Assembly (NCBI GenBank): GCA_024277355.1
Contig: JAJRVL010000004.1
Coordinates: 270,001-302,000 of the forward strand
DNA length: 32,000 nucleotides
From: an archaeon
Lineage (GTDB): Archaea; Iainarchaeota; Iainarchaeia; Iainarchaeales; 1-14-0-10-31-34
Reading direction: 5' to 3'
Within the stretch, counting starts at the first letter, position 1; every line of letters begins with the position of its first letter. Below the pieces are notes generated by a model. That model was given only the letters and a program-made list of their open reading frames with translations, did no database searches and was not told the origin of the DNA. The position numbers and the translations under genes are program-made. Of the stretch, positions 12,568 through 17,497 are shown in pieces.

Positions 12568-13128
12568 ATGCGCGGAAGAAATCCAGTCAGAAGAAATCAA
12601 GGAACACATGCTTCAAAATTTCATGGACAAAAAAAGAAAACACCTTTTTTCAGAAAACTAGTGCAAAAAAAAGTTACAAAAGAAATAATGCAGAAAATTT
12701 ACGGAATAGAAGCAAGAGAACAGCATTTAATTGAAAGAAGAGACGAAATACTTCATAAAACAAAAGGAATTCCTGCAATTTCAATTGGAAGATTTAGATT
12801 AACTCCAAGTGCAAAAAACCCAAGAGAACACCAGCAAATATTATTTGAACTTCAGAATGGAGCAATGCCAAGAAAAATACTTCAGTTTTCTGAAATAAGA
12901 GAATTAGCAAAAAGAAATCCAGTGCAATTTGGACAATTGTTTGATTTAGTTTACAAATATTTCACTGGAGAAATAACCAAAAAAGAAATAGATTCATTAA
13001 CTAAATTTTTAAAGCATGCAATAGAAAAAGGAAAAACTACTGACCAAAAAATGGCAAGAGTAATTCAATTAAAAAAAAGAAGAGAAGAAGAAATAGATTT
13101 TATCCAGTCTTATCACAAAGCAGCTTAA
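12568..13128 (+). CDS. hypothetical basic protein
   Basis: 186-aa ORF with no recognised motif. Its stop overlaps the AsnRS stop within the TTAA at 13125-13128. Confidence 0.4.
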   Translation: MRGRNPVRRNQGTHASKFHGQKKKTPFFRKLVQKKVTKEIMQKIYGIEAREQHLIERRDEILHKTKGIPAISIGRFRLTPSAKNPREHQQILFELQNGAMPRKILQFSEIRELAKRNPVQFGQLFDLVYKYFTGEITKKEIDSLTKFLKHAIEKGKTTDQKMARVIQLKKRREEEIDFIQSYHKAA

Positions 13129-14426
13129 GGATAACTTCTATTCAGTGTTCTAGGGAAAGGAATTGTATCTTTAATTGAATCTAATTTGCAAATCCATCTT
13201 AATAATCTTTCAATACCGATTCCAAAACCTGAATGAGGAACACTTCCATATTTTCTTAAATCCAGATACCATTGATAGTTTTCCAAAGGAATTTTTTCTT
13301 TCTTTAATTTTTTAAGCATGTTTTCATTTATGTCTTCTCTTTGTCCGCCGGTACATAATTCTCCATAACCTTCAGGCCCTATTAAATCAAAACTATAACA
13401 TTTTTTTGAGTCAGGCATTTCTTTTGCATAAAAAGCTTTTATTTTTGTAGGATAACCATAAATAAAAAAAGGAATTTTTTCATCCTGAGACAAAATTTTT
13501 TCTTCTTTAATGCTTAAATCAATTCCCCAAGGAATTTTCTTTTTGTATTTTTTTTCAAGTATTTCTAATGCTTCATCATAAGACATTTTTGCAAAAGGAG
13601 TTCTTATTGCCTTTAAGTCAGCTAAATCTCTTCCTAAAACTTTTAATTCTTCAGGGTTTTCTTCAGCTATTTTTTGACAAACAAAAGAAACCATTTTTTC
13701 TATTTCATGCATTTGGTCATCCATGTTCATCCATGCACATTCTCCTTCTAAATGCCAGTATTCTGTTAAATGCCTTGCAGTTTTTGATTTTTCTGCCCTA
13801 AAAGAAGGAGTTAAACCAAAAACTTTTCCTAAAGCAAAAATCATTACTTCTAAATACATTTGTCCTGATTGAGAAAGATATCTTTCTTTACCAAAATATT
13901 TTAATGGAAATAAAGTTGTTCCTCCTTCACAGGCATTAGGAGTAATCATTGCGGGACTGCATTCAAAATAATTTTCTTTTTTGTAAAATTCTCTTACAGC
14001 ATACATCAAAGTAGAACGGATTTTCATTATTGCCTGCATTTTACTGCTTCGCATCCATAAATGCCTTACATCCAATAAGAATTCTTCACTTAAATCTTTT
14101 TGTATTGGAAAATTAATGCTTTCTCCTATTAATTTTAATTCTTCAGCCATTAATTCAAATCCAGAAGGAGCTCTTGAATCTTCCTTTAATTTTCCGGTTA
14201 ATTCAACTGAAGCTTCAATGCTTTGTTTGCTTAATTTTTCAAATTCTTTTTTATCAATTTTTTCTGGTTCAATAATGCATTGAATTTCTCCTGTTTCATC
14301 TCTTAATAAAAGAAAAATTTTTTCTTTTAAATCTCTTTTTCTTTTAATCCATCCTCTGACTGAAACAAGTCCTTTTTTTTCAAAAGCTTTTTTTATTGAA
14401 ATAAATTCTTTTTCCATTAATATCAC
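13125..14426 (-). CDS. asnS: asparaginyl-tRNA synthetase
   Basis: Class IIb aaRS with an N-terminal OB fold. Motifs: LSQSGQMYLE, FRAEKSKTARHLTEYWHLEGE, HSGFGIGIERL, and a PFPRT tail. The track start is GTG 14426; ATG 14417 (MEKEF) is more likely. An archaeal-type AspRS cannot be fully excluded by eye. Confidence 0.8.
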   Translation of the reverse strand: MILMEKEFISIKKAFEKKGLVSVRGWIKRKRDLKEKIFLLLRDETGEIQCIIEPEKIDKKEFEKLSKQSIEASVELTGKLKEDSRAPSGFELMAEELKLIGESINFPIQKDLSEEFLLDVRHLWMRSSKMQAIMKIRSTLMYAVREFYKKENYFECSPAMITPNACEGGTTLFPLKYFGKERYLSQSGQMYLEVMIFALGKVFGLTPSFRAEKSKTARHLTEYWHLEGECAWMNMDDQMHEIEKMVSFVCQKIAEENPEELKVLGRDLADLKAIRTPFAKMSYDEALEILEKKYKKKIPWGIDLSIKEEKILSQDEKIPFFIYGYPTKIKAFYAKEMPDSKKCYSFDLIGPEGYGELCTGGQREDINENMLKKLKKEKIPLENYQWYLDLRKYGSVPHSGFGIGIERLLRWICKLDSIKDTIPFPRTLNRSYP

Positions 14427-14468
14427 TTCATTAATTTTTGTTAGGTTAAAAATTTAAACTAATTTTAA

Positions 14469-14634
14469 CGCCCTAGAAAGGATTTGAACCTTTGACCTTC
14501 CGGTATCTGCTTTCACATAGGTGGAATAAGGCACGGCATAAAGCCGTGCTAGCGCTACTTTATGTAGCGCACACGCGTCAACCGAGTGAGCGGTTGTTTA
14601 ACAGCCGGATGCTCTACCACTAAGCTACCAGAGC
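14469..14634 (-). tRNA. tRNA-Asn(GUU) with a 94-nt intron at the canonical 37/38 position
   Basis: Exons: GCUCUGG UA GCUU AGUGGUA GAGC A UCCGG CUGUUA|A CCGGA AGGUC AAAGG UUCAAAU CCUUU CUAGGGC G. All stems pair (two G:U), the discriminator is G73, and there is no encoded CCA. The 5' end lies 10 nt after the AsnA-like stop. Confidence 0.85.
14505..14598 (-). other. tRNA-Asn intron (94 nt, GC-rich, three hairpins, BHB-compatible junctions)
   Basis: Central 4-bp helix C32-U35 : GCAG, flanked by 3-nt bulges UA|A and AU|A. Hairpins (forward coordinates): 14579-14596 with 6 bp, 14552-14570 with 7 bp, 14531-14549 with 7 bp. Confidence 0.8.
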
Positions 14635-14644
14635 AAAAAAAAAT

Positions 14645-15588: not shown

Positions 15589-15676
15589 AAGAACTATTTA
15601 AATAAAATCCAAAAAAAAAGGGAAAAATTACAAAAAACACAACAATTTAAATGGTTTATGGAACATATGTTTCAAA

Positions 15677-16111
15677 ATGGAAGATAAAAGCGAACAAATA
15701 CTTGAGTTTTTAAGGAATAACAGCAAGCTTTCTTTAAGACAAATAGCCAAAAAAGCAGGAATTCCATTAACTACCGCCCATAACAGAATAAAAAAAATGC
15801 AGAAAGAAGGAGTAATAAAAAATTATTCTGTTGAAGTGGATTACTCTAAATTAGGGTTAAGTTTATGCGCTTATATTATGGCTTCAGTTAAATATGATGC
15901 AATGCATAAATCACAGCAGGAAATTGCAAAAAAAATTTTAAAATTAAGTTTTGTCAAATCAGTGGATATTATTACCGGTGGATTTGATTTATTAATTAAA
16001 GTAAGAGCAAAAAATATTTCTCAGTTAAACAAATTAATTACAAAAGAATTAAGAAATGTCGAAGGAATAGACAAAACCACTACCATGATTGTATTAGAAG
16101 AAATAAATTAA
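15677..16111 (+). CDS. Lrp/AsnC family transcriptional regulator
   Basis: 144 aa with an N-terminal HTH (LSLRQIAKKAGIPLTTAHNRIKKMQKEGVI) and a C-terminal RAM/ACT-like domain. Divergent from the AsnA-like gene. Confidence 0.85.
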   Translation: MEDKSEQILEFLRNNSKLSLRQIAKKAGIPLTTAHNRIKKMQKEGVIKNYSVEVDYSKLGLSLCAYIMASVKYDAMHKSQQEIAKKILKLSFVKSVDIITGGFDLLIKVRAKNISQLNKLITKELRNVEGIDKTTTMIVLEEIN

Positions 16112-16115
16112 ATTT

Positions 16116-17096
16116 TTATTTTTTTAATTTAATGTTTAATTCATCTAATTGTTTTTCTGAAACTTTACTTGGAGCTTCTTCTAATAAACCCATTGCATTT
16201 TTGTTTTTTGGAAAAGCAATTACTTCTCGAATTGAATTACTTTCAGTTAAAATCATTATTAATCTATCTAATCCAATTGCAAAACCTCCATGAGGAGGAG
16301 CACCATACTGAAATGCTTCCAATAAAAAACCAAATTTTTGTTTTGCCTGCTTTTCATTTATTCCCAAAAAATCAAATATTTTTTGCTGGGTTTTAGGATT
16401 ATGAATTCTAATTGATCCTGAACCTAATTCAGTTCCATTTAAAACTAAATCATAAGAACGGCTTCTGATTGATAATAAATCTTTTTTATTTTTTGATTCA
16501 AGTTTTTTTTCATCTTCTTTGTTAAACTGAGTAAAAGGATGATGACATGGAACAATTTCTTTTTCGTCATTTAATTCAAATAAAGGAAAATCCGTAACCC
16601 ACAAAAAAGAATTCTTTAATTTTGTTTCTTTTCTTGTATCAGGTTTATCTGTTTTGTATTTTTCCATTGCTTTACTATAAGTTATTCTTGGAAAAGGAAT
16701 TTTTAAGTCTTCATTTAATGCATTTTTAAAAACAAACTGCATTGTTTTTTCAAGCAAAGAATAAACATCTTCTTCTTCAACAAAACTCATTTCCAAATCC
16801 AATTGAGTAAATTCAGGCTGCCTGTCTCCTCTTAAATCTTCATCCCTGAAACATCTTGCAATCTGAAAGTATTTGTCAAAACCTGAAACCATTAATAACT
16901 GCTTGTATAATTGAGGACTTTGAGGCAAAGCAAAAAAACTTCCATTAAATTTTCTGCTTGGAACTAAATAATCTCTTGCACCTTCAGGAGTGCTTTTAGA
17001 TAAAATTGGAGTTTCAATTTCCAAAAAATCCTGCGAATCAAAAAAATCTCTCATTGATTTAATTATTTTATGTCTTAATAACAAATTATTAAACAT
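16116..17096 (-). CDS. aspS: aspartyl-tRNA synthetase, bacterial type, catalytic domain (lacks GAD insertion)
   Basis: 326 aa with [51 protein letters not shown] and [13 protein letters not shown]. Only 8 residues lie between DKPDTR and FLWVTDFP. Confidence 0.9.
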
Positions 17097-17497
17097 TTTT
17101 TTCTTCTTAAATCTAAATACCTGTATTTTAATCTTGTATCTTCATTTGCTTTTACTTCATCTTCTATTGCAAAAGGAATTGGTTCAGCTGAATTTAATAC
17201 TTCAATACTTTCAGCACTAACTTCAATTGTTCCTGTTTCAATTTTTGGATTAGAATCAGGTCTTTTTTTTACTGTTCCTTTAATTCTTAAAACAAATTCA
17301 TTTAACAAAGAAGAAACTATTTCATCAGTTTTTTTGTCTTTTCTTGAAATAAAAATCTGAGTTAAACCAGTTTTATCCCTTAAATCAATAAAAGCAAATT
17401 TTTTTTGGGCACGAATTGAATTAATCCATCCTTCTAACACTACTTTTTTTCCTGTGTCTTTTTCTCTTAATTCACCGCAAAAATGAGTTCGATTCAT
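17075..17497 (-). CDS. aspS: aspartyl-tRNA synthetase, N-terminal anticodon-binding (OB) domain fragment
   Basis: 140 aa reading RTHFCGELR...GWINSIR...FIDLRDKTG...[13 protein letters not shown]. It then runs out of frame (CLIICY*). It overlaps the catalytic ORF by 22 nt at an A7 run (17096-17102). Confidence 0.9.

Follow-up and report, generated by a model that had tools for sequence, protein, structure and literature searches.

The stretch of archaeal DNA considered here (the window: 32,000 nucleotides of contig JAJRVL010000004.1 of assembly GCA_024277355.1, an Iainarchaeota genome, with a base composition of ~27% G+C) contains a compact group of genes concerned with asparagine and aspartate. 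The order is asnS (-), tRNA-Asn(GUU) (-), an asnA-like gene (-), a divergent lrp (+) and aspS (-), and the coordinates are collected in Table 1. An initial annotation, made from the letters alone, had given these five genes in this order and on these strands, and all were found in the window by means of the list of open reading frames (ORFs), Rfam and profile searches. It had overlooked an intron in the tRNA gene, two frameshifts and the bacterial nature of aspS, which lacks the GAD domain. At the centre of the group lie lrp and asnA, which share a short control region, and the conservation of this divergent pair in several archaeal phyla is the principal finding described below.

Table 1. Features of the asparagine/aspartate locus, in positions of the window (SD, Shine-Dalgarno).
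Feature	Position	Strand	Remarks
asnS, asparaginyl-tRNA synthetase	13125..14417	-	ATG start, 430 aa; alternative GTG at 14426 gives 433 aa
asnS promoter-like region	14422..14458	-	TATA-like TTTAAAT 14452-14458; SD-like GAAGTGAT 14422-14429
tRNA-Asn(GUU), discriminator G73	14469..14634	-	exon 1 14599-14634; intron 14505-14598; exon 2 14469-14504
T9 run, asnA stop to tRNA 5' end	14635..14643	-	read from sequence
asnA-like, archaeal asparagine synthetase A	14645..15561	-	305 aa reconstructed; 1-nt deletion ~15378/15379
box 2, inverted repeat TTCCC-T9-GGA	15608-15624		directly upstream of asnA TATA-like TTTAAATAG (15594-15602)
box 1, palindrome TGGAAC-ATAT-GTTTCA	15659-15674		between lrp TATA-like TTTAAAT (15645-15651) and lrp start codon
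lrp, Lrp/AsnC (FFRP) regulator	15677..16111	+	144 aa; divergent from asnA
aspS, bacterial-type AspRS	16116..17497	-	460 aa reconstructed; 1-nt deletion in A7 run 17096-17102

On its profile and structure matches, the asnA-like gene is an archaeal asparagine synthetase A, a paralog of AsnRS. As read, it is divided into two ORFs, 15373-15588 (71 aa) and 14645-15364 (239 aa), by the loss of one base where relatives have GATTATTTAGGG and the window has GATATTTAGGG (GATTAT to GATAT). Split proteins were scored both as the fragments that are read and as reconstructed proteins with one base restored; on the asparagine synthetase A model NF005054 the AsnA fragments give 274.9 and 41 bits and the reconstructed protein gives 334.9 bits (cutoff 309), against only 108.7 bits on the AsnRS model. 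The closest solved structures, 1nnh and 3p8t ('archaeal asparagine synthetase A'), match end-to-end over 294 aa (5e-56). The class II core (PF00152) is the only domain, with no N-terminal oligonucleotide-binding (OB) anticodon-binding domain, which bears out the earlier description of the protein as an AsnRS catalytic-core paralog of the same family as those structures. The identity assigned to the gene thus stands, although its reading frame is split by the deletion. Alignment of the reconstructed protein is unbroken over the junction and retains 62 of 62 invariant columns in an alignment of 32 sequences. A search for AsnA homologs returned 1237, the closest intact ones having 73-81% identity, and the frame is undivided in all 120 that were listed, except for the window's own fragment. 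The enzyme would convert aspartate, ATP and ammonia to asparagine independently of tRNA.

The divergent partner of asnA encodes a regulator with a winged helix-turn-helix (HTH) domain (PF13412 HTH_24, PF13404 HTH_AsnC) and a RAM domain (PF01037 AsnC_trans_reg). PH1519 (FL11) and LrpA of P. furiosus are its closest solved structures, and it falls below the equivalog cutoffs of LysM (90 against 180) and of E. coli AsnC (NF008384; 69.4 against 227). The control region that it shares with asnA is about 115 nt long and, reading from the lrp ATG, consists of box 1, TTTAAAT, box 2, TTTAAATAG, an SD-like AGGTGAT and the asnA ATG. The initial annotation had pointed to this region as a place to look for Lrp-type sites, and two candidate boxes were indeed found there; as to the remaining genes, asnS and aspS have no copy of box 1 ahead of them. 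At one mismatch or fewer, box 1 is the sole match in the window; at two mismatches there are two matches in the window, which is the chance expectation, and neither is upstream of asnS or aspS. Sites of archaeal Lrp proteins have been described as imperfect inverted repeats of 13-17 bp with an AT-rich centre, occurring in clusters (PMC2995911), and box 1 matches that description in its length of 16 bp, its imperfect symmetry and its AT-rich middle.

Further support for the pair comes from its conservation. The comparison took in 82 related loci; neighbourhoods were read for L001-L003 and for 80 species-representative loci and scored by BLAST against the proteins of the window. A divergent lrp adjoins asnA in 72 of the 78 distinct loci that possess upstream sequence, so that the pair proposed in the initial annotation is far more conserved than could have been known from one genome. 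It is found in Micrarchaeota, Iainarchaeota, some Woesearchaeota, Thermoplasmatota, Asgard archaea and a metagenome-assembled genome of Methanosarcinales. The intergenic region measures 111-126 nt in most loci, and within the window's own clade its conservation is 84%. Across 71 intergenic regions (70 loci and the window), 48 carry a GC-containing palindrome that starts no more than 6 nt from the lrp ATG; shuffled sequences gave a mean of 4.3 and a maximum of 10. Box 2 is kept in the alignment of the clade, and TTCC-N-GGA repeats lie 50-53 nt from the lrp start in 10 loci of several phyla. The palindromes fall into three classes, and the class co-varies with the turn and recognition helix of Lrp: GGAA..TTCC (DPANN, Asgard) occurs with P[LQ]TT.HNR, CGTCA..TGACG (Thermoplasmatota) with PRAT.HDR, and GACA..TGTC (one group of Micrarchaeota) with PRVT.HER. 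A variation on the arrangement is seen in L005 (1253-2394), where a tandem pair of lrp genes precedes asnA, each 61-62% identical to the Lrp of the window.

The position of the boxes suggests how such a unit might work. Autorepression is suggested by the predicted site that separates the TATA box of lrp from its start, and control of asnA by the one immediately before the TATA box of that gene. In essence, Lrp would bind box 1 beside its own start and repress itself, and would bind box 2 to tune asnA to an amino acid, for which asparagine is the most plausible candidate. We infer from sequence that Lrp binds this DNA, what its effector is, in which direction it regulates and where the promoters lie.

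Beyond asnA on the same strand lies asnS. Its ORF, 433 aa when counted from the GTG, had been called AsnRS, and that is what it proves to be, rather than an archaeal-type AspRS. The product scores 467.8 bits on NF003037 (cutoff 414) and 418.3 bits on TIGR00457 (cutoff 342.6); it also passes the AspRS model NF003483, but barely (358.6 against a cutoff of 353), and the AsnRS match is clearly the better. The same is seen with solved structures, where AsnRS of P. horikoshii (1x54; 1e-122, 413.7 bits) is the closest and the archaeal AspRS 3nel gives 5e-72 and 246.7 bits. It is composed of an OB fold and a class II core and is 84-86% identical to the asnS products of relatives. Comparison with relatives makes ATG 14417 a likelier start of translation than GTG 14426. 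The TATA-like and SD-like elements ahead of the gene stand at the same distance from its start in L001, L002 and L004, all of which are without a tRNA there, and they would act as its promoter.

Between asnA and asnS lies the tRNA-Asn gene. The asnA stop codon occupies 14645-14647 and the 5' end of the tRNA gene is 10 nt beyond it, an exact spacing that can be read from the sequence and that the initial annotation had stated correctly; a further 51 nt separate the tRNA from the asnS ATG. The short gap after asnA is filled by the T9 run. Oligo-T tracts are terminator signals in archaea, and this one may be a candidate terminator ahead of the tRNA.

These features bear on the broadest of the earlier proposals, a single Asn/Asp regulon in which Lrp would control asnA, tRNA-Asn, asnS and aspS, and in which asnA, the tRNA and asnS would share a transcript. 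The tight packing of these last three, with the 10- and 51-nt spacings just given, and their common strand would be expected of such an arrangement, as would the overlapping or abutting, operon-like asnA and asnS of L035 and L082, and the position of a tRNA-Asn gene in L024 (see below) would put that tRNA under the regulated promoter. Other observations point the opposite way: the window contains a single box 1, aspS converges on lrp and is preceded by an AT-rich region of its own without an Lrp box, and most lineages with the lrp/asnA pair have asnS and aspS elsewhere. Because the predicted Lrp box is restricted to the lrp/asnA region, asnS retains conserved promoter-like elements and the T9 run stands ahead of the tRNA, the single regulon and its co-transcript are not supported, and we consider them decidedly improbable. 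The reading that we favour, with moderate confidence, is a layered cluster around an old lrp/asnA regulatory unit, in which the outer genes are under their own promoters and the frameshifts are incidental. asnS and aspS would have been drawn next to the lrp/asnA core in Iainarchaeota-like DPANN and then kept, and both appear to be transcribed from promoters of their own.

The tRNA gene itself is 166 nt long, owing to an intron of 94 nt at the canonical 37/38 position. ARAGORN in a default run over the window called no tRNA at this locus; with introns allowed, it reports a tRNA-Asn with anticodon gtt and i(38,94), and Rfam RF00005 matches over the full length with 53.7 bits. The bulge-helix-bulge criterion asks for two 3-nt bulges, a 4-bp helix between them and outer helices h and h'. 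In the predicted fold of the splice sites, the anticodon stem (h) is followed by a 3-nt 3' bulge (AUA), a helix CUGU/GCAG, in which the 3' end of the intron pairs with bases of the anticodon loop, and then a second bulge, at the 5' splice site; the outer helix h' cannot form, and a hairpin begins directly past the bulge. The junction fits a relaxed, bulge-helix-bulge-like motif, at which cleavage may take place. AsnRS would charge tRNA-Asn after removal of the intron at this motif, and AspRS would charge tRNA-Asp.

The intron (14505-14598, minus strand) has features of its own. It is ~50% G+C within a genome of 27% G+C and folds into three hairpins (z = -3.9), two of which have perfect 7-bp GC-rich stems and pentaloops, AUAAA and UUUAU, that are exactly complementary and, on this model, could form a kissing pair. 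At a permissive threshold, comparison of the intron with Rfam gave no family beyond tRNA itself; inspection for C/D box motifs gave none that was convincing, no further copy of the hairpins was found elsewhere in the window, and a metagenome scan with the 3' half of the tRNA returned only bacterial tRNA-Val of high-GC contigs and no homolog of the intron.

The placement of this tRNA is not shared by relatives. The asnA-asnS spacer of L001, L002 and L004 is ~50 nt long and contains no tRNA, and L005 ends before the junction; among the loci compared, only this genome has a tRNA between the two genes, and here it would have been inserted between asnA and the asnS promoter. In L024 an intron-less tRNA-Asn gene is placed between the lrp/asnA control region and asnA. 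Elsewhere in the window, glyS (NF003211, 516 bits; 22370-24023, minus strand) has tRNA-Thr(CGU) 88 nt downstream on the same strand, a non-cognate pair. A habit of this genome to pair synthetases with cognate tRNAs, considered as a candidate explanation, is ruled out by this second case, and since glyS adjoins a non-cognate tRNA, a tRNA beside a synthetase gene is uninformative on its own.

Scattering of the genes in close relatives, which the initial annotation had named as a ground for rejecting the unit, is not seen: the four protein genes stand together in all four distinct close relatives recovered, with the order aspS-lrp-asnA-asnS in L001, L002 and L004, and aspS, lrp and asnA in L005, where the sequence ends on the asnA side. 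This synteny is more than chance. L007 and L024 have the same four-gene order with a peptide deformylase gene between asnA and asnS, and among the loci compared the order is confined to Iainarchaeota-like DPANN genomes. Looser associations are more widespread: asnS follows asnA immediately in the window's clade and in L035, L063, L064, L073 and L082, several Micrarchaeota (L010, L012, L013) have it 2-3 kb upstream, and in total 13 distinct loci from several DPANN lineages have it within 4 kb of asnA in varied arrangements. Only L007, L024 and the window's clade have an adjacent aspS, that of the clade being of bacterial type; in L064 a full-length bacterial-type aspS is found 2.4 kb away.

The deformylase homolog is a curiosity in itself. 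It is a protein of 172 aa that scores 103-108 bits on TIGR00079, close to the cutoff of 104, and its gene comes immediately after asnA in several DPANN archaea (L007, 8963-9481, and L024, 2971-3489, between asnA and asnS; also L008, L009 and L051). Archaea do not formylate their initiator methionine, and a deformylase is unexpected in them. In addition, three ORFs on the plus strand of the window, 28209-31004 (931 aa), 19839-20945 (368 aa) and 12568-13128 (186 aa), have no match in Pfam or NCBIfam; those of 368 and 186 aa are conserved in relatives.

How much of this wider arrangement reflects selection can be argued in two directions. It might be neutral synteny, with only lrp and asnA coupled and with asnS, aspS and the tRNA neighbours through ancestry and small genome size. 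Chance adjacency of a synthetase and a tRNA is evidently possible, as glyS demonstrates, the closest relatives have no tRNA-Asn at this position, and the full four-gene order is limited to one DPANN group. Such neutrality is at odds with the recurrence of asnS within 4 kb of asnA in differing arrangements in several lineages, with the retention of an aspS slot despite the differing type of its occupant, and with the second, independent tRNA-Asn gene beside asnA in L024, for which the rough chance expectation over 80 genomes is ~0.04. On balance, we think it unlikely.

A stronger form of the opposite view would see the cluster of Iainarchaeota-like DPANN as a kit that selection maintains for direct formation of Asn-tRNA. 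Grouped about an Lrp switch that senses asparagine would be the components that set this route apart from the one through GatCAB: asparagine synthetase, AsnRS, a discriminating AspRS and, in some cases, the sole tRNA-Asn gene. Selection would be strong enough for the in-place replacement of AspRS by the bacterial type and for two captures of tRNA-Asn at different positions. A survey reported that all genomes then known to have AsnA use AsnRS and not GatCAB (PMC2330236), from which it follows that the cluster holds parts specific to the direct route. As a whole, this proposal is a doubtful one.

The enzyme in the aspS slot deserves separate description. As read, aspS is two ORFs (17075-17497 and 16116-17096), the deletion being in or beside the A-run (AGAAGAGAAAAAATG in relatives, AGAAGAAAAAAATG in the window); the homologs in relatives are intact, with 460-466 aa. 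The reconstructed protein reaches 687.3 bits on NF001750 (cutoff 443). The GAD insertion is absent: residues 302-418 of the AspRS of T. thermophilus (1efw) are unmatched, and PF02938 was not found in the protein. Both DPANN (Woesearchaeota, Nanoarchaeia, Diapherotrites) and bacteria of the Omnitrophota widely possess a bacterial-type AspRS of this kind (~450-470 aa, no PF02938), a distribution that suggests transfer between DPANN and Omnitrophota. Dozens of such clusters in these groups rule out the idea that the GAD-less enzyme is a rarity and, being widespread there, it is not special to this locus. In L007 and L024 the slot, likewise convergent with lrp, is occupied by an archaeal-type AspRS (NF003483, 551 and 529 bits). 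The L007 enzyme has Arg at the position of the Pro that is conserved in non-discriminating archaeal-type enzymes. Pro at that position is reportedly (work of Feng et al. 2005) the mark of a non-discriminating archaeal-type AspRS, and on that criterion the L007 enzyme would be discriminating. On the far side of aspS, L001 (3359-4057) and L002 (3251-3952) have a gene for an HhH-GPD DNA glycosylase between a Na+/H+ exchanger gene and aspS; at the corresponding place the window has just a 70-nt spacer (17498-17566).

A topical question for this locus is whether the two frameshifts are real. In a block of ~15 kb that is shared with relatives and contains roughly 14 genes, only asnA and aspS are split, each by a single-base deletion, and the other ~12 are intact. 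Most likely these deletions arose through errors of sequencing or assembly, or else by mutation very recently, and lie outside the mechanism. The alternative is a decaying locus, in which a symbiont-like archaeon has lost asparagine synthesis and manages without an intact aspS through slippage on the A7 run or through a second aspS elsewhere. It would account for the fact that both frameshifts fall inside the cluster while the rest of the block is undamaged. A third disrupted gene would also be in keeping with it: a carbamoyltransferase (Carbam_trans_N, Carbam_trans_C; 1483-3255, plus strand), outside the syntenic block, has an in-frame TAA at 1735-1737 with both pieces in the same frame, which is not an indel-type error and makes three disrupted genes in 32 kb. 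Furthermore, the aspS shift falls on a perfect A_AAA_AAA heptamer, where a -1 slip restores RRKKMFNN and which would allow partial rescue by slippage. Rescue of this kind on poly(A) tracts is said to occur in AT-rich endosymbionts (Tamas et al. 2008).

Several observations speak against decay. aspS is essential, asnA and aspS are otherwise undamaged with every invariant residue kept, and single-base deletions are typical of long-read assemblies such as might underlie a contig of 526 kb. The asnA site (T GAT ATT TAG), moreover, is not slippery, and the usable window between stops is two codons, for which reasons a programmed frameshift in asnA was rejected. We regard decay of the locus as a live, though rather unlikely, alternative.

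Returning to the layered cluster with lrp/asnA at its core, the considerations that weigh against it should be set out together. The core model rests on sequence, with the binding of Lrp to its operator and the expression of the genes only predicted. The class of operator tracks phylogeny as well as the recognition helix, so the co-variation with the HTH is no independent proof of contact. No lrp, asnS or aspS was found in the asnA neighbourhoods of P. furiosus, P. abyssi and T. pacificus. These belong to the Thermococcales, the group in which archaeal-type AsnA was characterised; a partner lrp was sought specifically beside the characterised Pyrococcus enzyme and is absent from those neighbourhoods, and the pairing is therefore not obligatory. 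Lrp sites are degenerate, and the search may have overlooked a weak one ahead of asnS or aspS; in a genome of 27% G+C there may also be read-through over the T9 run and the tRNA. Finally, the frameshifts may be real, given that the two broken genes among ~14 are both in this cluster, and the source genome is a single database record (contig of 526,574 bp) with no second assembly for comparison, so that both frameshifts rest on one assembly.

Nothing here overturns current understanding. The lrp/asnA unit nevertheless offers a regulator, a likely operator and a target that are conserved together over several phyla, which is rare in archaeal biology, and, as the variation of the operator follows that of the recognition helix, both the effector and the code of DNA recognition are directly testable. 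The extended cluster bears on commitment to direct as opposed to indirect formation of Asn-tRNA, and the aspS slot provides a clean example of one type of synthetase replaced by another at the same position.

Parts of the picture are already known, namely the theme of the E. coli asnC-asnA pair, the archaeal AsnA family and the relationship of that family to AsnRS. The closest parallel in gene arrangement is the divergent asnC-asnA pair of E. coli (Kolling and Lother 1985, as cited in PMC4177876), with which the initial annotation had compared this locus. As far as the divergent arrangement goes the comparison is sound: in both, a regulator of the Lrp/AsnC family diverges from an ammonia-dependent asparagine synthetase with an aminoacyl-tRNA-synthetase-like fold, and here the predicted site of the regulator overlaps its own promoter, which fits autoregulation. 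It does not extend to the proteins as equivalents within their E. coli families, since the synthetase is the archaeal, AsnRS-derived AS-A (NF005054) and not E. coli AsnA, the regulator is no AsnC equivalog, and the promoters are of the archaeal TATA type.

The change of enzyme type in the aspS slot also has a precedent, reportedly described by Omelchenko et al. in 2003 as xenologous gene displacement in situ: the slot is archaeal-type in L007 and L024 and bacterial-type in the window's clade. For asnA the comparison is with the Pyrococcus asparagine synthetase A (AS-AR; 1nnh, 3p8t), said to have been studied by Roy et al. in 2003 and Blaise et al. in 2011. The gene of the window belongs to the same family, has the class II core without an anticodon-binding domain and keeps the invariant residues; it differs in its lrp, asnS and aspS neighbours and in its 1-nt deletion.

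No description of an archaeal lrp/asnA unit, or of an archaeal Lrp that targets an asparagine synthetase, was found in the literature searched or in the tables of a 2010 review (PMC2995911), where none of the characterised archaeal Lrp/FFRP members is listed with asparagine for its effector or with such a synthetase among its targets. The Lrp of the window shares its fold with FL11 (PH1519), LrpA, LysM, Ptr2 and Ss-LrpB, and its predicted site, a 16-bp AT-centred imperfect palindrome, is of the kind described for them. The predicted site between TATA box and start site resembles the arrangement in repression by LrpA of P. furiosus, and the predicted site upstream of the TATA box of the target resembles that in activation by Ptr2.

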